Source: an uncultured Woeseia sp. (GTDB lineage: Bacteria; Pseudomonadota; Gammaproteobacteria; Steroidobacterales; UBA11654). From it: a stretch of DNA of 52,749 nucleotides. The notes under the pieces were generated by a model. It was not told the DNA's origin, searched no databases, and saw only the letters and a program-made list of their open reading frames with translations. Positions 31,829-38,741 of this stretch are shown here, one piece after another; positions within the stretch are counted from its first letter, which is position 1; each line of letters opens with the position of its first letter. The DNA lies in contig CAZVRH010000005.1 of the NCBI GenBank assembly GCA_964629335.1, forward strand, positions 1 through 52,749, written 5' to 3'. The position numbers were made by a program, and so were the translations under genes.

Positions 31829-34800
31829 TTACCCGACCCATTCTCTGGCATTATGAAAAATTTGTAGCCAAGGTCCGTCTTCAGCCCATTCCGGAGGACA
31901 CCATGAATGTTGCTGCTTTCTTATGACTCTTTCAGGATGTGGCATAATGATAGTGACTCGTCCGTCCTTTGAGCAAAACCCTGCTAGACCGTCTTCTGAA
32001 CCGTTCGGATTGAACGGATACGATTGAGCAGGGTGGCCATAATTATCCACGTATCTAAGTGAAATTTGACGATGCTGTTCTAACGCTTCTTTATCATCGC
32101 TTCCATGATACTGGGTTCGACCCTCACCGTGAGAAGTGGCTATTGGTAGAATTGATCCTTCCATATTCTCTAAGAACAATGAAGAGCTTTTGGTAATCTC
32201 TACGAGACTCAATCTGGCTTCAAATTGTTCCGAGAGATTTTTAACAAATTGTGGCCAATGATCTGCTCCTGGAATAATACCTTTTAATTGAGACAGCATT
32301 TGACAGCCGTTACACACTCCTAAAGTAAAGGTCTCCGTATGATTGAAGAAATCTTCAAAATGCTTTCGTGCTATAGGGTTATATAGAATAGACTTAGCCC
32401 AACCTCCCCCTGCACCTAAAACATCACCATAAGAAAACCCGCCGCAGGCTACCAAACCTTGGAAATCATCCAATCCGTTCTGACCGTCAATAATATCTGT
32501 CATGTGCACATCAATAGCTTCAAAACCTGCTTTATGGAAGGCCACAGCCATCTCAACGTGACTGTTTACTCCCTGTTCTCTTAGCACAGCTATTTTGGGT
32601 CTTTTGTCTTTGCGGCGAATCGATTGGTCAGGATTTCTCTGGGTAAAAGTAATTTTTGCCGTAATCCCTGGATCACTTACATCTAGCGTTGCTTCAAACG
32701 CTTCCTTAGCTGTTTCAGGGTTATCTCGAAGAGATTGCATTCTAAAAGATAGCTCTGACCAAGATTGTCTTAATTCTCTCAAGGTAAACGTCGAAGAAAA
32801 TCCATGATCTGTTTCCAAACTAATCTGCTTAGACTCCTGGGTTCTACCAATGATTGATGCTAACCCTTCGAGCGAGTATTCCTGTAAAACATTCATCACA
32901 GTCTCTAGATTATTTTCGTCAATTTCCAAAACTGCACCGATCTCTTCGGAAAAAAGCAATGACAGAGTTTCATCTATTGTGCCTGTCTTTAAATGAACAC
33001 TCACTCCAGTATTCCCAGCAAATGCCATTTCTGTAACAGTAGCAAACAACCCGCCGTCTGATCGATCATGATAAGCAAGTATAGTGTTTCTAGCTTTTAA
33101 GTCTGTGATGGCGTCAAAGAATGTCTTTAATAAACCTGGGTTATCAATGTCAGGTGACTCCCCGAGTGATCGATTATAAATTTGAGCGAGACAAGAAGCT
33201 CCCAATCTATTATTCCCTTTTCCTAAATCAATAAGTAACAACAAGCTGTCGCCTTGTCTTTTTAATTGAGGGGTAATTGTTTTATTGACATCATCAACTT
33301 GAGCAAATGCTGAAATAATAAGCGACAACGGAGCGGTCACTTGATTCTCTTGATCGTCTGCTGTCCATGTCGTCTGCATAGACAATGAATCCTTGCCAAC
33401 CGGTATGGTCAACCCTATTTGGCTACAAAAATCAATGGTCACTGCTCTGACTGTTTCAAATAAGGCTTGTTTTTGAGCATCCGTTTGAATGGATGACATC
33501 CAATTCGCTGAAAATTTAACATCTGAAATCTCTTTGATGGAAGCAGAGAGAATATTCGTTATTGCTTCGGCCACTGCCAACCGGCCTGATGCTGATGGAT
33601 TAATCGTCGCAACAGGGGTTCTCTCTCCCATGGACATAGCTTCCCCCATCGATGAATAATGGTCTCTCAAGGTTACCCCTACATCGCTCACCGGTACTTG
33701 CCAAGGACCAATAAACTGATCTTGAGAAACCAATCCACCTACTGTTCGATCCCCGATATGGATTAAAAATGTTTTGTCTGCAACCGTTGGAAATCGGAGA
33801 ATTTTTTTACAAGCATCCTCAATGTCAATCCCATCCAATGTCTGACAATCGACTTCTGAGGATTGCGTAGAAATTGCCAGTTCAGTTTTGGGTGGGTTGC
33901 CGAATAAGACTTCCATCGGCATGTCGATTGGAAAATTATTAAACTGATCATCTTTAAGTCTCAAATAGCCGTGAGTGTTCACGGTTCCAATCACACTATA
34001 AGGGCATCGCTCTCTTTGGCAAATTTGATCAAAAAGTTCTAGATTGTCTGGGTCGATAGATAACACATAACGCTCTTGTGCTTCATTGCACCAAATTTCA
34101 AGAGGAGACATCCCAGGTTCTGCATTGAGTATCTTTCTCAACTCTAAATCAGCCGACATTTTACTGTGATCAATGATTTCAGGGACAGCATTGGAGAGCC
34201 CTCCAGCACCAACGTCGTGAATTAAGATAATAGGGTTGTTGGACTCATGTGCTTCATCGAGTGTTAGAGAGAAACATCGGTTAATCACTTCTTGAACTCG
34301 TCGTTCTAACTCAGCATTGCCTCTTTGCACGGAAGCGAAATCAAGATCTTCATTGCTTGCGCCTGCATTTAGTGATGAAGCAGATCCGCCGCCTAAACCG
34401 ATAAGCATAGCAGGCCCACCCAGCACGATAATCAAAGACCCTTTTTTGGTGTCCCTTTTTTGGACAGAAGACTCAGAGATATTGCCCATACCGCCGACAA
34501 TCATAATGGGTTTATGGTACCCCCAAGACTTGGTTTGGCTCTGATCTTTAGGCGACTCAAAGGTTCTAAAATACCCGAAAATATTTGGTCTCCCAAACTC
34601 ATTATTAAATGATGCGCCGCCGATCGGCCCTTCCAGCATAATGTCCAACGCTGACGCTATCCGATCAGGTTTACCGATGGTTTTCTCCCAGGATTGTATA
34701 TCATTGGGAATTCTTAGATGTGAAACTGAAAAACCAGTTAAACCGGCCTTAGGACTTCCTCCTCTTCCCGTGGCGGCCTCATCTCTGATTTCACCACCGG

Positions 34801-35731
34801 AACCTGTGGCCGCCCCCGGGTAGGGCGAAATTGCTGTTGGGTGATTATGTGTTTCAACTTTCATCATCGTATGAATATTATCTTTGACATAGGAGTAACT
34901 TTGTCCCGTATTGGAGGGCATGAACCAACGCCCTTCTCCGCCTTGCATGACTGCCGCATTATCCTTATAAGCAGACAATACGCCGTTTGGATTTGACTTA
35001 TACGTGTCTTTAATCATATCGAACAGGCTCGATTCTTCTTTGTTTCCATCTATGGTCCATTCGGCATTAAAGACTTTATGTCTGCAATGTTCTGAATTAG
35101 CCTGTGCAAACATCATTAACTCTGCATCCGTCGGGTCCCTTCCTAAATTTTGAAATTGCTCTAACAGATAGTGAATTTCTTGATTATTTAAAGCTAAACC
35201 TAAATTCGTATTCGCTTTTTCTAACGCGGCTTGACCTTCGGATAAAATAGGAATCGCAGCATGTGCGACTGGTTTTTCTGTTTGGAAAATCAAGTCAGGC
35301 TGCTCACTTTCAGGCAACACCTGTTGAGTCATTCGATCGTAGAGTTTAGAGATACACTGATTTCTTGTTTCCTGATCTTTTGATAAAGACACTAAAGTGA
35401 ACATTAGACCTCGCTCTATTTGTTTAATGTTTCCTAATCCTGAACTGTGAGCAATGTCCGTCGATTTGCTTGACCACGGTGAAGTGGTACCTAATCTTGG
35501 AATGACAAGAACCTTATCGCCTTGATCTGGCCCTAGCTCCCAATCCGGTCCATAGGTTAGCAGTGAATTGAGAATCTGGATCTCTTGCTCATTGAGGGTT
35601 GTAATATTGTCAATAAAATGAATATACCTCGCCCCTAATGAAGTAATGCCGGGGTCTAGATTTTGTAATTCAATTAGAAGTTGATGGAGTCTGAACGGTG
35701 AGTGAGATGGAGGGCCTTCAATGGTGATCAT
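31829..35731 (-). CDS. purL: Phosphoribosylformylglycinamidine synthase (large fused type)
   Basis: MFAQANSEHCRHK, KVETHNHPTAISP, GAATGSGGEIRDE, HDVGAGG, GVCNGCQ and MPHPER glutaminase motifs; 1300 aa. Confidence 0.98.
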   Translation of the reverse strand: MITIEGPPSHSPFRLHQLLIELQNLDPGITSLGARYIHFIDNITTLNEQEIQILNSLLTYGPDWELGPDQGDKVLVIPRLGTTSPWSSKSTDIAHSSGLGNIKQIERGLMFTLVSLSKDQETRNQCISKLYDRMTQQVLPESEQPDLIFQTEKPVAHAAIPILSEGQAALEKANTNLGLALNNQEIHYLLEQFQNLGRDPTDAELMMFAQANSEHCRHKVFNAEWTIDGNKEESSLFDMIKDTYKSNPNGVLSAYKDNAAVMQGGEGRWFMPSNTGQSYSYVKDNIHTMMKVETHNHPTAISPYPGAATGSGGEIRDEAATGRGGSPKAGLTGFSVSHLRIPNDIQSWEKTIGKPDRIASALDIMLEGPIGGASFNNEFGRPNIFGYFRTFESPKDQSQTKSWGYHKPIMIVGGMGNISESSVQKRDTKKGSLIIVLGGPAMLIGLGGGSASSLNAGASNEDLDFASVQRGNAELERRVQEVINRCFSLTLDEAHESNNPIILIHDVGAGGLSNAVPEIIDHSKMSADLELRKILNAEPGMSPLEIWCNEAQERYVLSIDPDNLELFDQICQRERCPYSVIGTVNTHGYLRLKDDQFNNFPIDMPMEVLFGNPPKTELAISTQSSEVDCQTLDGIDIEDACKKILRFPTVADKTFLIHIGDRTVGGLVSQDQFIGPWQVPVSDVGVTLRDHYSSMGEAMSMGERTPVATINPSASGRLAVAEAITNILSASIKEISDVKFSANWMSSIQTDAQKQALFETVRAVTIDFCSQIGLTIPVGKDSLSMQTTWTADDQENQVTAPLSLIISAFAQVDDVNKTITPQLKRQGDSLLLLIDLGKGNNRLGASCLAQIYNRSLGESPDIDNPGLLKTFFDAITDLKARNTILAYHDRSDGGLFATVTEMAFAGNTGVSVHLKTGTIDETLSLLFSEEIGAVLEIDENNLETVMNVLQEYSLEGLASIIGRTQESKQISLETDHGFSSTFTLRELRQSWSELSFRMQSLRDNPETAKEAFEATLDVSDPGITAKITFTQRNPDQSIRRKDKRPKIAVLREQGVNSHVEMAVAFHKAGFEAIDVHMTDIIDGQNGLDDFQGLVACGGFSYGDVLGAGGGWAKSILYNPIARKHFEDFFNHTETFTLGVCNGCQMLSQLKGIIPGADHWPQFVKNLSEQFEARLSLVEITKSSSLFLENMEGSILPIATSHGEGRTQYHGSDDKEALEQHRQISLRYVDNYGHPAQSYPFNPNGSEDGLAGFCSKDGRVTIIMPHPERVIRKQQHSWCPPEWAEDGPWLQIFHNAREWVG

Positions 35732-35751: not shown

Positions 35752-36087
35752 CTAAGTCTTAGAGTTATCATCTGGAACAAAGACTGTATTTGGCAATTGT
35801 GTCACATTATCGCCTTCAGCTTTACTGACTTTGCTAACACCCTGCTTGTCGACTTCATCAATTCTTAAAACAGAATGCATCGGCAAATAGGTTCGATTCA
35901 CACCTTCGAATTCAGTTTTTATTTTTTCTTCCGAGGGATCCACTACCAGCGATGTCTTTTCTCCAAAAACAAGAGATTCTATTTCTATAAAACCAAGAAG
36001 ATTGCTGTTGGCTATACTTTTAGCATAAATCTCATACAGCTTACCCTGATTACTAAAAGTAACTTTATATAGTTTTTTTGATGCCAT
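35752..36087 (-). CDS. DUF1820 family protein
   Basis: YKVTFSNQGKLYEIYA, LVVDPSEEKIKTEFEGVNRTYLPMHSVLRIDEV resembles the DUF1820 consensus as I recall it. Confidence 0.8.
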   Translation of the reverse strand: MASKKLYKVTFSNQGKLYEIYAKSIANSNLLGFIEIESLVFGEKTSLVVDPSEEKIKTEFEGVNRTYLPMHSVLRIDEVDKQGVSKVSKAEGDNVTQLPNTVFVPDDNSKT

Positions 36088-36106
36088 TTAATTGATTAAT
36101 CTAACA

Positions 36107-36126
36107 ACGAATTATTGACGAATTAT
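36107..36126. repeat. 9-bp direct repeat ACGAATTAT x2 at 11-bp period
   Basis: Copies at 36107-36115 and 36118-36126, overlapping a minus-strand TATAAT (36122-36127) upstream of DUF1820-purL. Confidence 0.55.
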
Positions 36127-36189
36127 AACTCAGAATTTGAATCATATGGTTATTATTACAATTCGATATTTTAATGTGTAAGAAAACAA

Positions 36190-36217
36190 TTGAAATGATA
36201 ATGATTATCATTATTAT
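36190..36217 (+). promoter_or_regulatory. Fur box within a sigma70 promoter
   Basis: GATAATGATTATCATTATT (36197-36215) matches the Fur consensus GATAATGATAATCATTATC at 17/19; perfect TGATAAT-G-ATTATCA 7-1-7 at 36196-36210; nested in TTGAAA-N16-TATTAT. Confidence 0.85.
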
Positions 36218-36244
36218 GTAACTTTATAGTATGCTAGAGAACTC

Positions 36245-36385
36245 TTGAAATTCTTAAATAAAATAAAAACAAATAAAAAAAAGATTCTGGGCTACACGGT
36301 AAAAGGATCGATTTGGTTTTTTATTATTAAAGGAACTATCTCAACCATACTTATTTTATTGGGAATTTTTTACCTTACGAATTAA
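36245..36385 (+). CDS. Small membrane protein (46 aa), not in the ORF track
   Basis: TTG start after AGAGA; MKFLNKIKTNKKKILGYTVKGSIWFFIIKGTISTILILLGIFYLTN; basic N-terminus and hydrophobic C-terminus; fills the gap between the Fur promoter and the P19-like gene. Confidence 0.6.
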   Translation: MKFLNKIKTNKKKILGYTVKGSIWFFIIKGTISTILILLGIFYLTN

Positions 36386-36398
36386 AAGTCGAAAATAA

Positions 36399-36953
36399 TT
36401 GAAAATGAAAATATATCACTACCTGACTGCTGTTCTAATTATGTTTACGGTAACACAAGCCAACTCATTGCCTGAACTGATTATTGGTCAATCGTCAATA
36501 GAGCCAGGAATTGACTTAATATTTGAGGGAGGCATCAAAGATGATGTCACTCCAGCAAAATATTATTTAGGTGAATATGCGACGGACGTTCATATAGAAG
36601 TCCTAGCCAATTGGTCCTCAAATGCGCCGTCAGGATCTCCAATCGGAGGGCATGTCGCCTATCTCGAAGTTACTGCAGAAATCATTAACGAGAACTCAAA
36701 AGAATCATCTAATGTAGAACTCACCCCGCATTTAAACATGTCAGACAATTTTCACTACGCACAAAATATCAAATTACCTGGAAATGTTAATGAGTCCTAT
36801 ACTGTAATATTCAAGATTAGTCAGCCCGTATCAGGCAATATGGGATTGCACTATGACTGGAGGAATCAAGTTGCAAATTCATTAACTCCAGGGGGTAGAT
36901 TTGAGTTTAAAAATATCGACTTCGAACAGATTGCCTTATCCACTAGACGATAA
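36399..36953 (+). CDS. Periplasmic iron/metal-binding protein, P19/Tpd/FetP family (divergent)
   Basis: Signal peptide; DVHIEV, YLEVTAEI, SDNFHYAQNIKLPG, GLHYD motifs; downstream of a Fur box; start may be the ATG at 36405. Confidence 0.8.
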   Translation: MKMKIYHYLTAVLIMFTVTQANSLPELIIGQSSIEPGIDLIFEGGIKDDVTPAKYYLGEYATDVHIEVLANWSSNAPSGSPIGGHVAYLEVTAEIINENSKESSNVELTPHLNMSDNFHYAQNIKLPGNVNESYTVIFKISQPVSGNMGLHYDWRNQVANSLTPGGRFEFKNIDFEQIALSTRR

Positions 36954-37025
36954 GTTGTTTTCATAGCTTCAAGTATTAAGTTTTAAAGCCTTCAAAATAA
37001 GATTAAAATCGAAGGACTGGTAATT

Positions 37026-38741
37026 ATGTTAAAAACACACATCAAAAGACTAACTTGTTTTGTCCTGATTCTAACGATCATGTCCTGCGGAGAGGATTCC
37101 GACAAACAACTCTCAACACAAACCTCTTTATCAGTTGAAAAGCTCGTAGAACATAGTCAGGAATTTGAACCCAATATCTATTCTTATGGAAACGGTATCC
37201 ATATGGCTGTGGGTTACGGAATCGCAAATTCGATCATGGTTGAGGGAGATAATGCCAACATAATTATTGATGCTTCAGATAGCACTTTTGAAGCTGAGCT
37301 CGTTTACAAACAGTTTAAAAAAATAAACTCTAAGCCCATTAAGGCCATTATTTACACTCACAACCATGGTGACCATACTTTTGGGGCTGCTTATTATTAC
37401 AACTTATTTGAAGAGAAACCCGATGTCATTGCACATGAATCAACGGATTATTATGTTGAACGAATCATGGGGATCTTAAATCCGATTATTTCCAAAAGAA
37501 GCACCAGAATGTTCGGCACTGAGTTAGGAGATGAGGACGTTATCAACGTTGGTATTGGACCGTACCTTGGTGTCTCTCAAAGCCCGGTTGGATATATCAA
37601 GCCAAACATCACCTTTAAAGAAGAACTCAAACTAACCATTGCAGGCATAGACATTGAACTCTATCACGCACCTGGAGAAACCAACGATCAATTATTTGTT
37701 TGGTTGCCTCAGAAAAAAGCTTTAATGCCGGGTGACAATTTATATAGAACGTTCCCAAACCTATACACGATAAGAGGAACCACCCATCGTGATGTTAAAG
37801 GCTGGATTCAAAGCTTGGACCATATGCGTTCATTCAACCCTGAATATCTTTTTCCAAGTCATACTAGACCCTTATCGGGGCCGGAGGTTCTTCAAACTCT
37901 GACTCTTTATAGGGATGCTATTCAATACGTTCATGATCAAACTATTAGATTAATGAATAAAGGGTTATACCCAGATCAGATTATCGAATTAATTCAATTA
38001 CCAGACAATGTGGCTAATTCTCCATTTATTGCTGAATTCTATGGCACAGTACGATGGTCAGTAAAAAGCATATTTAATGGTTACTTAGGTTGGTTTAATG
38101 GCAATATCTCAGATTTAGATCCCTTGTCTAGAAAAGAAGAAGCAGAAAGATTAGCCAGGCTAGCCGGTGGACAAGATGCTTTATTTTCAGAACTTATAAA
38201 TGCTGTAAAAAACTATGATATGCAATGGGCATTGCAACTCAGTGATAGACTGATTGCTCTTAATTTTAGATCTGAAGAAACCCATAAACTCAGGGCACAA
38301 GCTGCTCAATATATAGGCGAACAATCTTCAAATCCCAATAAAAGAAATTATTTTCTAAGTGCTGCTTATGAATTAGATCCAAAGTACCAGCAAGGCTCAT
38401 TGCTTCCACAAACAGAATCTCTTTTAAAAGAAATTTCTATGGATATGTTCTTTGATATTTTAGCAGTGAGGTTAAACCCTGAAAAAATTCAGCCAGGAGA
38501 GTTTCGAGTGTGTTTTAGCTTCTCATCCGGTGTTCAAAAGTCAATAACGCTTCGAAACAGTATTGCTGAGATAGCCTCCCTAACAGCTGATTGTGATATT
38601 CAGGTAGAATCAGACGATCAAATCTTTAAAGAAATGCTTTCAGGTATTCGAAATCCCATCATTGCTATAACGACAGGTAAAATCAATACTAACGGTGAAG
38701 CAGCCTCCTTTTTAGCTTTTTTAAATAAGTTTAGTGACTGA
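37026..38741 (+). CDS. Alkyl sulfatase (SdsA1/BDS1-type MBL hydrolase with dimerisation and SCP2-like domains), probable lipoprotein
   Basis: YTHNHGDH, HAPGETNDQ, GDNLYRTFPNLYTIRGT, PSHTRP, YGTVRWS, YLGWFNGN; IMSC lipobox-like signal. Confidence 0.9.
   Translation: MLKTHIKRLTCFVLILTIMSCGEDSDKQLSTQTSLSVEKLVEHSQEFEPNIYSYGNGIHMAVGYGIANSIMVEGDNANIIIDASDSTFEAELVYKQFKKINSKPIKAIIYTHNHGDHTFGAAYYYNLFEEKPDVIAHESTDYYVERIMGILNPIISKRSTRMFGTELGDEDVINVGIGPYLGVSQSPVGYIKPNITFKEELKLTIAGIDIELYHAPGETNDQLFVWLPQKKALMPGDNLYRTFPNLYTIRGTTHRDVKGWIQSLDHMRSFNPEYLFPSHTRPLSGPEVLQTLTLYRDAIQYVHDQTIRLMNKGLYPDQIIELIQLPDNVANSPFIAEFYGTVRWSVKSIFNGYLGWFNGNISDLDPLSRKEEAERLARLAGGQDALFSELINAVKNYDMQWALQLSDRLIALNFRSEETHKLRAQAAQYIGEQSSNPNKRNYFLSAAYELDPKYQQGSLLPQTESLLKEISMDMFFDILAVRLNPEKIQPGEFRVCFSFSSGVQKSITLRNSIAEIASLTADCDIQVESDDQIFKEMLSGIRNPIIAITTGKINTNGEAASFLAFLNKFSD

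Follow-up and report, generated by a model that had tools for sequence, protein, structure and literature searches.

Organization of the locus

The stretch of DNA analysed here, 52,749 nt of contig CAZVRH010000005.1 (assembly GCA_964629335.1) from an uncultured Woeseia sp. and hereafter called the window, contains a small open reading frame (ORF) directly upstream of a gene for a P19-type periplasmic iron-uptake protein. The assembly comprises 1.48 Mb in 106 contigs, with a G+C content of 38% and a completeness of 94%. The small ORF lies on the plus strand (36245-36385), begins with TTG and ends with TAA, and would encode a membrane protein of 46 residues (MKFLNKIKTNKKKILGYTVKGSIWFFIIKGTISTILILLGIFYLTN). 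It is preceded by a Fur box inside a promoter and followed, 13 nt after its stop codon, by the P19 gene. An earlier note, made from the letters of the window alone, had described a hidden ORF with a transmembrane helix at this position as part of a minimal Fur-controlled iron module, had suggested that the peptide could be a new iron-starvation small protein, and had ranked the module as the best candidate for an undescribed system in the window. As detailed below, that proposal was borne out for the Fur box, the promoter, the hidden ORF, the P19 assignment and an undescribed, conserved peptide, which is probably a new helper protein in iron starvation; the minimal module was not supported, and the idea that the peptide anchors P19 is disfavoured. 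All comparisons refer to one gammaproteobacterial family of small-genome marine bacteria ("the family"), represented by 20 species genomes in two genera.

The small ORF as a conserved gene

The hidden ORF was borne out as a conserved protein-coding gene. A six-frame search with a profile of the peptide recovered the ORF from 13 of the 20 species, in a single copy each time and with both genera represented. A pattern scan of 185,579 species genomes recovered the peptide in 12 species of the family, together with one doubtful match in Bacteroidia, and a scan of marine metagenomes added 45 further loci. The family peptides are 44-47 residues long and contain no cysteine, and their stop codon is always TAA, at a conserved position. 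Their start codons were TTG in 24 cases, GTG in 7 and ATG in 9. The first alignment, of 12 sequences, showed 21 invariant columns including the block FFIIKGTI, and a wider alignment of 19 sequences retained 12 invariant columns including FFIIKG; three loci carry the rare I-to-V variants FFIVKGT or FFVVKGT. Among 38 distinct nucleotide versions, the median pairwise ratio of nonsynonymous to synonymous substitution rates (dN/dS) was 0.10; in 306 of 703 pairs, saturation had been reached at the synonymous sites. The small ORF was judged to be protein-coding because its frame is kept across species and because dN/dS is this low while synonymous sites are saturated. By this pattern of substitution, it is a true gene under strong purifying selection.

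No family in Pfam (E up to 10) or NCBIfam matched the peptide or 12 orthologues. Only six called relatives of the peptide were found among 5.8 billion proteins, all labelled "hypothetical", as against 236 called relatives at E <= 1e-5 for the adjacent P19; the peptide had therefore been fairly described as unannotated. Literature searches found no description of such a peptide. As far as these searches reach, the peptide is an undescribed family of predicted small membrane proteins, restricted to one lineage.

Residues 1-21 of the peptide are rich in lysine, with a net charge of +7, and are followed by a transmembrane segment at about residues 23-44 that contains the motif FFIIKGTIST. The Kyte-Doolittle hydropathy peaks at 2.14 over residues 23-41, and the predicted transmembrane segment ends 2-3 residues short of the stop codon. 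AlphaFold2, supplied with the family alignment, modelled one continuous helix from residue 2 to residue 44, with a predicted local distance difference test (pLDDT) score of 88. By the positive-inside rule, the N-terminus would be cytoplasmic. The peptide is thus predicted to be a single-pass inner-membrane micro-protein with its C-terminal helix in the membrane.

Two look-alikes were found outside the family. P0127 (L104:5001-5144; 47 residues, METPAKTSRWKKMLTKYGIWGIVFFVVKGTISTILIILGLDSLSEIF, containing VFFVVKGTISTILIILG) was the sole outsider in a profile search of 1.84 billion representative proteins, with an E value of 3.7e-4, and a search seeded with P0127 itself returned three proteins. 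Its gene, which lies downstream of alternative-complex-III genes, stands alone and ends in a strong hairpin terminator; neither a Fur box nor an iron-uptake gene is found beside it. This distant homologue shows that such a peptide can be a gene in its own right. The second look-alike is the match in Bacteroidia (L035:3860-4117, from the metagenome-assembled genome (MAG) contig JAIBAH010000018.1), an 85-residue ORF with two predicted helices that directly follows sufC-sufD and carries FWFFIIKGTITTSMILYGIW, a sequence closely resembling the helix of the peptide. This match is possibly due to chance, since its 8-residue core is identical to the search pattern; its Fe-S neighbourhood is nonetheless striking.

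Promoter and Fur box

A 157-nt intergenic region separates the plus-strand genes from a DUF1820 gene on the minus strand (35752-36087; PF08850, 137 bits), beyond which lies purL (31829-35731; FGAR amidotransferase domains). Within this region, a sigma-70-type promoter was recognized on the plus strand (36190-36217), composed of the -35 element TTGAAA (36190-36195), a 16-nt spacer and the -10 element TATTAT (36212-36217). With 10 of 12 matches, this promoter obtained the top score of the region, and the same elements are visible in relatives. The -10 hexamer is located about 28 nt upstream of the TTG of the small ORF, and transcription would start approximately 20 nt upstream of the ORF.

The Fur box (GATAATGATTATCATTATT, 36197-36215, no strand assigned) occupies the promoter spacer and the -10 hexamer. 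It differs from the 19-bp consensus GATAATGATAATCATTATC at two positions on the plus strand and at only one on the minus strand, and it is the sole consensus site in the window, where 0.01 would be expected from shuffled sequences. A near-consensus box between the -35 and -10 elements, as reported earlier, was thus confirmed, with the addition that it extends into the -10 hexamer. Since the box lies inside the promoter, bound Fur would cover both the spacer and the -10 hexamer. The genome contains two Fur-family genes and, with the box overlapping the promoter, control by Fur is predicted. Among related loci with upstream sequence, a Fur-type box is positioned 28-40 nt upstream of the peptide start in all 53, and in 51 of these 53 it has three or fewer mismatches.

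The box might instead have served only the divergent DUF1820-purL side. However, in three species (G002, G006 and G014; L010, L017, L018 and L101-L103), a DMT/EamA-like membrane-protein gene separates DUF1820 from the Fur box. There the peptide still starts 32-34 nt after the box; DUF1820 is about 1.1 kb away from the box and has none in its own 350 nt of upstream sequence. The box is assigned to the peptide side because it stays with the peptide where the DMT-like gene intervenes, and service to DUF1820 is ruled out.

A search of Rfam with positions 35900-37100 gave no match, i.e., no riboswitch or known small RNA that would explain the conservation. A terminator scan detected none between the peptide gene, the P19 gene and the gene that follows.

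The P19 gene and a distant FTR1 permease

The gene following the peptide (36399-36953, plus strand, TTG start) encodes a 184-residue periplasmic iron-uptake protein of the P19/FetP/FtrA family, in agreement with the earlier assignment to P19/Tpd. It matches PF10634 with 93.1 bits (cut-off 21) over profile positions 4-138 of 150, and a profile of the P19 subfamily matches the structures of FetP (3NRP), P19 (3LZL), Tp34 and FtrA with E values of 6e-9 to 4e-5. TTG 36399 is the likely start, rather than ATG 36405, because two near-identical (98%) metagenome contigs (L056 and L057) carry ACG in place of this ATG; with this start, the 13-nt gap after the peptide stop, as given previously, is correct. 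The N-terminus (MKMKIYHYLTAVLIMFTVTQANS, ending in TQANS and followed by LPELIIG) resembles a signal peptide by inspection. In all P19 orthologues, the n-region is basic and precedes a hydrophobic core, and the mature part opens with a conserved (P/A)E(M/L)IIG. P19 is therefore predicted to be exported to the periplasm.

The copper and iron site of P19-type proteins is built from His, Glu, Met, Asp and His, with a further His contributed by the partner subunit. Five of these six positions, H41, E43, D92, H95 and H127 of P19 (counted from the P of PELIIG), do not vary among 46 sequences and correspond to FetP ligands by alignment. A histidine after a conserved proline (...LTPHLNMSD...) is likewise invariant in all 46 distinct P19 proteins of the family, whereas FetP (3NRP) and 8T7K have at this position a methionine that is a copper ligand. 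In the alignment, the loop at the Pro-His site is also one residue longer. The family P19 could thus have a changed metal site, as a variant of the subfamily.

Downstream of P19, at a distance of 72 nt, lies a gene for an alkylsulfatase-like hydrolase of the metallo-beta-lactamase (MBL) fold (37026-38741, plus strand; Pfam Lactamase_B, Alkyl_sulf_dimr and Alkyl_sulf_C). This gene follows P19 in 12 of the 19 related loci examined and does not do so in L006-L009, L019 and L020; it may be co-transcribed with P19, although it is no constant member of the unit. The N-terminus of the hydrolase contains a lipoprotein-like signal (...ILTIMSCGED...).

With purL, DUF1820 and the MBL hydrolase as neighbours, no FTR1 gene adjoins the peptide and P19 genes in the window. 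This absence had been noted earlier and holds, the sole FTR1 of the genome being on another contig. This permease (302 residues; contig C4, 38670-39371; L036:5383-6400) matches PF03239 with 141 bits, and has two REXXE motifs (RESLE and REGFE) and seven hydrophobic segments. A Fur box (GATAATGATTATCATTACC) is located 62 nt before its ATG. A scan of all 106 contigs found just two Fur sites with two or fewer mismatches, namely those of FTR1 and of peptide-P19; five weaker Fur-like sites (3-4 mismatches) were inspected and set aside, all being in coding regions. Behind its Fur box, the FTR1 gene stands alone, the next gene on its strand being that of a small heat-shock protein (HSP20). No feoB was found in the genome. 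These data suggest a very small Fur regulon, the detectable part of which consists of two promoters. Thus, the locus is not the self-sufficient minimal module that had been envisaged: contig C4 carries a complete FTR1 gene downstream of the one further consensus Fur box in the genome.

P19 needs an FTR1-type permease, the gene of which is normally its neighbour; FTR1 is present in 16 of the 20 family genomes and never adjoins P19. The Fur core AATGAT(T/A)ATCATT was found 62-96 nt before FTR1 in 12 of these 16 genomes, and a weaker box with three mismatches in a 13th. The three species with the DMT-like insertion (G002, G006 and G014) have no recognizable Fur box in the 250 nt before FTR1. Overall, FTR1 and P19 are predicted to form a split pair, co-regulated through two Fur boxes.

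What follows the peptide in related genomes

The peptide is always encoded by the first ORF, and the next gene, within 3-23 nt, is one of ferrous-iron uptake. In the 53 loci with upstream sequence, this gene is P19 in 42 and feoA in 10; in the remaining locus, the contig ends too soon. P19 is also found downstream in the three further loci with the FFIVKGT or FFVVKGT variants, giving 45 P19-linked loci.

The feoAB layout was observed in ten loci, i.e., nine metagenome contigs and one species contig, the latter from a member of the sister genus (G019). In this species, the DUF1820/purL locus is the same and contains divergent DUF1820, the Fur box, the peptide gene (ATG start, 46 residues), feoA 6 nt further on and feoB, with Pfam matches confirming this layout. 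The FeoB of this form has 721 residues. Of the 20 family genomes, that of G019 alone contains feoB. No P19 and no FTR1 were detected in it, but with a completeness of 82% their absence is uncertain. The feoAB-linked peptides are still under purifying selection, with ratios of nonsynonymous to synonymous polymorphism (pN/pS) of 0-0.27. One feoAB-linked lineage (L093:560-725 and L094) has AAG at the position of the ATG and no in-frame ATG, GTG or TTG upstream, although the frame is otherwise intact; either recent inactivation of the gene or the use of a rare start codon, for instance ATC, would account for this.

In six species of the genus to which the window belongs, the Fur box is followed by P19 (with FTR1 present where assemblies allow), and the peptide is found nowhere in the genomes. 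In this subclade, the spacing between the Fur box and the start of P19 equals that between box and peptide elsewhere, and P19 is 9-14 residues longer. It opens with a lysine-rich sequence (MSIIIDLKLKNKLIG, MSKILDKKLKDQFIG) like the N-terminus of the peptide (MSIIEKINKNKMKIL). This resemblance is suggestive of an in-frame deletion that would have fused the start region of the peptide (codons 1-14) to P19. The DNA alignment by which the fusion was tested is AT-rich and ambiguous; the spacing and the N-terminal resemblance fit. If the fusion reading is true, ribosomes do start at that position.

The peptide is not regarded as a P19-specific anchor because it precedes feoA-feoB in one form of the locus and because one subclade keeps P19 and FTR1 without it. 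At the level of gene order, this distribution shows the peptide to be tied to iron starvation or Fe(II) import in general, and not to one protein.

Proposed role of the peptide

In the reading that we prefer, with a probability of roughly 0.6, the locus is a Fur-repressed operon, the first cistron of which encodes a single-pass micro-protein that helps to import Fe(II) and links its own translation to that of the next gene, and the second cistron of which encodes P19. When iron is scarce, Fur would leave both promoters, and FTR1, P19 and the peptide would be made together. The peptide would insert its C-terminal helix into the membrane, leaving the cationic N-terminus on the cytoplasmic side, and would act as a generic accessory, either a stabilizer or a modulator, of whichever Fe(II) importer is present, in the manner of KdpF, MgtS and AcrZ. 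Translation of the peptide would at the same time feed ribosomes to the next cistron. The peptide would be helpful yet dispensable, one subclade having lost it. The association with two unrelated importers, together with the loss of the peptide in some species, is why a generic and non-essential accessory is favoured.

A more specific form of this proposal, in which the peptide is a shared accessory subunit for FTR1/P19 and FeoAB, Fur-induced and tail-anchored, is offered only tentatively and is considered unlikely. Such a subunit might gate or stabilize the permease, or might hand over Fe2+ on the cytoplasmic side through its lysine-rich amphipathic arm. If true, it would explain why the peptide was retained when one uptake system replaced another at the locus.

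Several observations weigh against the accessory role. Weak start codons dominate, which fits a low-abundance protein but also an ORF acting mainly in cis, and one feoAB-linked lineage is without a canonical start. Any role in uptake is not essential, since the peptide is missing from six species that have P19 and FTR1; the uncertain absence of P19 and FTR1 from the incomplete G019 genome also counts here. Moreover, FTR1 with its seven predicted helices and FeoB with its 721 residues look complete on their own.

The strongest rival is a mainly cis-acting leader, in which translation of the ORF, perhaps sensed through the nascent hydrophobic chain or through co-translational membrane targeting, would set the output of P19 or FeoA/FeoB, the released peptide having no job. 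Much of the gene arrangement is compatible with this reading: the ORF is always the first cistron, is kept with the promoter when the downstream genes are swapped, mostly has a weak start codon, and was lost by the apparent fusion of its start region to a P19 that was itself kept. Its transmembrane segment, ending 2-3 residues before the stop, would still be in the ribosome tunnel at termination. In many relatives, the TAA of the peptide abuts the Shine-Dalgarno sequence of P19 (TAAAGGAAG); in the window, where P19 starts with TTG, this sequence has decayed to AAGTCGAA. In the feoAB-linked form, feoA begins 5-6 nt after the peptide stop without a Shine-Dalgarno sequence. Because the feoA Shine-Dalgarno sequence is missing and that of P19 is decayed, translation of the peptide should deliver ribosomes to the next gene, and a second role of the ORF, in cis, is likely from this arrangement. 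However, as the sole function it is improbable. The dN/dS of 0.10 extends over the entire peptide, N-terminus and complete helix alike, although an ORF serving for coupling would require less; a good Shine-Dalgarno sequence of its own is present at many a P19 gene, and the distant homologue P0127 is monocistronic with its own terminator. Leaders such as MifM, SecM and VemP, which monitor membrane insertion or secretion, have an N-terminal hydrophobic segment that is followed by a C-terminal arrest motif. The family peptide is similar to these leaders in being encoded by a short upstream ORF with a conserved hydrophobic segment directly before the gene that would be regulated. Unlike in these leaders, the helix is at the very C-terminus, and no known arrest motif was recognized on inspection.

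Distinctly less probable is an iron-starvation effector unrelated to transport, i.e., an iron-sparing modulator of a respiratory or Fe-S membrane complex, or a type I toxin-like peptide, that merely shares the Fur promoter. The position of P0127, alone beside alternative-complex-III genes and with neither an iron-uptake gene nor a Fur box, is in line with such a role, as is the look-alike helix in the ORF after sufCD in the Bacteroidia MAG; a cationic N-terminus with one helix is, in addition, common to many small membrane effectors. Within the family, however, no copy of the peptide gene was seen apart from a gene of Fe(II) uptake, the Bacteroidia ORF contains the 8-residue search pattern and may be a chance match, and no sign of an antisense RNA or antitoxin was seen in a search limited to Rfam.

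The reading of the earlier note, that of a dedicated membrane anchor or partner of P19 that replaces the missing adjacent FTR1, is now disfavoured and regarded as very improbable. Tight adjacency to P19 in 45 loci and predicted co-regulation by Fur would fit it, but FTR1 is present elsewhere in the genome and is preceded by a Fur box. In addition, the peptide precedes feoAB, under selection, in a lineage where P19 and FTR1 were not found, and six species keep P19 and FTR1 without it. P19 has its own signal-peptide-like N-terminus, and just 2-3 residues of the peptide beyond the helix would reach into the periplasm. The regulation of a transporter encoded elsewhere, which the note had raised as well, may be a role of the peptide.

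In the last reading, the ORF is no gene but a frame that is open by chance, or a relic in decay, such as that of an earlier P19 signal sequence. This would suit a short ORF in AT-rich DNA with a TTG start and, in the window, a weak Shine-Dalgarno sequence, of a kind that gene callers almost never call. The probability of this reading is close to nil, however, and it is refuted by sequence evolution: 13 species and 45 metagenome loci keep the frame open, with 21 invariant residues in the 12-sequence alignment, a conserved TAA position and a dN/dS of 0.10 at saturated synonymous sites.

Comparison with known systems

Fur control is a feature of the known FTR1-P19 systems compared here. For that of Campylobacter, it has been described (PMC6083913). 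The genome analysed here is similar to those with Campylobacter cFtr1-P19, E. coli FetMP and Bordetella/Brucella FtrABCD in having a PF10634 P19 and a REXXE-containing FTR1 permease, with predicted Fur control. Unlike in those systems, the genes for the permease and P19 lie apart and have a Fur box each, and neither gene is accompanied by an FtrB, FtrD or Cj1660-65-type partner. Further differences are the invariant histidine that replaces the copper-ligand methionine of FetP/P19 in the family P19, and the small membrane-protein gene that precedes P19, no such gene having been found described in literature searches.

PF12669, the one Feo-linked family of small peptides described so far, consists of peptides of about 50 residues with a single helix, linked to a ferrous-iron importer and of unknown role (PMC8749426). 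These peptides are encoded downstream of feoB or fused to the C-terminus of FeoB, have a Cys-rich motif and occur mainly in Firmicutes and Bacteroidetes (PMC8749426). The family peptide resembles them in size, in its single helix and in its genetic tie to a ferrous-iron importer. In contrast, it is encoded upstream of feoA or P19, contains no cysteine, is confined to one gammaproteobacterial family and does not match the PF12669 hidden Markov model. Membership in PF12669 was rejected on the grounds that 12 members had no Pfam match, that cysteine is absent and that the gene lies upstream of feoA.

Some of the small membrane proteins known from other transporters are also relevant. KdpF, encoded by the first gene of kdpFABC, and MgtS, MntS and AcrZ are proteins of 30-50 residues with one helix. 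Each of them either shares its induction with a transporter or is encoded next to one, and each is a non-essential accessory. As with KdpF, the family peptide is encoded by the first cistron. Unlike any of the four, however, the same peptide accompanies two unrelated importers, and no sequence relationship was found, as TIGR02115 and all other models fail to match.

Significance

What does this small gene add to the picture of iron acquisition? Few model bacteria have yielded small membrane proteins by which metal transporters are tuned, KdpF, MgtS and MntS among them, and such proteins escape routine annotation. The peptide described here is a comparatively validated example from uncultured, genome-streamlined oceanic Gammaproteobacteria. 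Its impact is limited by its restriction to one lineage, by a role that is proposed from sequence comparison and by its dispensability in some species. Nevertheless, the exchange of P19 for FeoAB with promoter and peptide retained constitutes a natural experiment. Should the peptide indeed modulate uptake, it would add a new component to the means by which bacteria acquire ferrous iron where iron is limiting.

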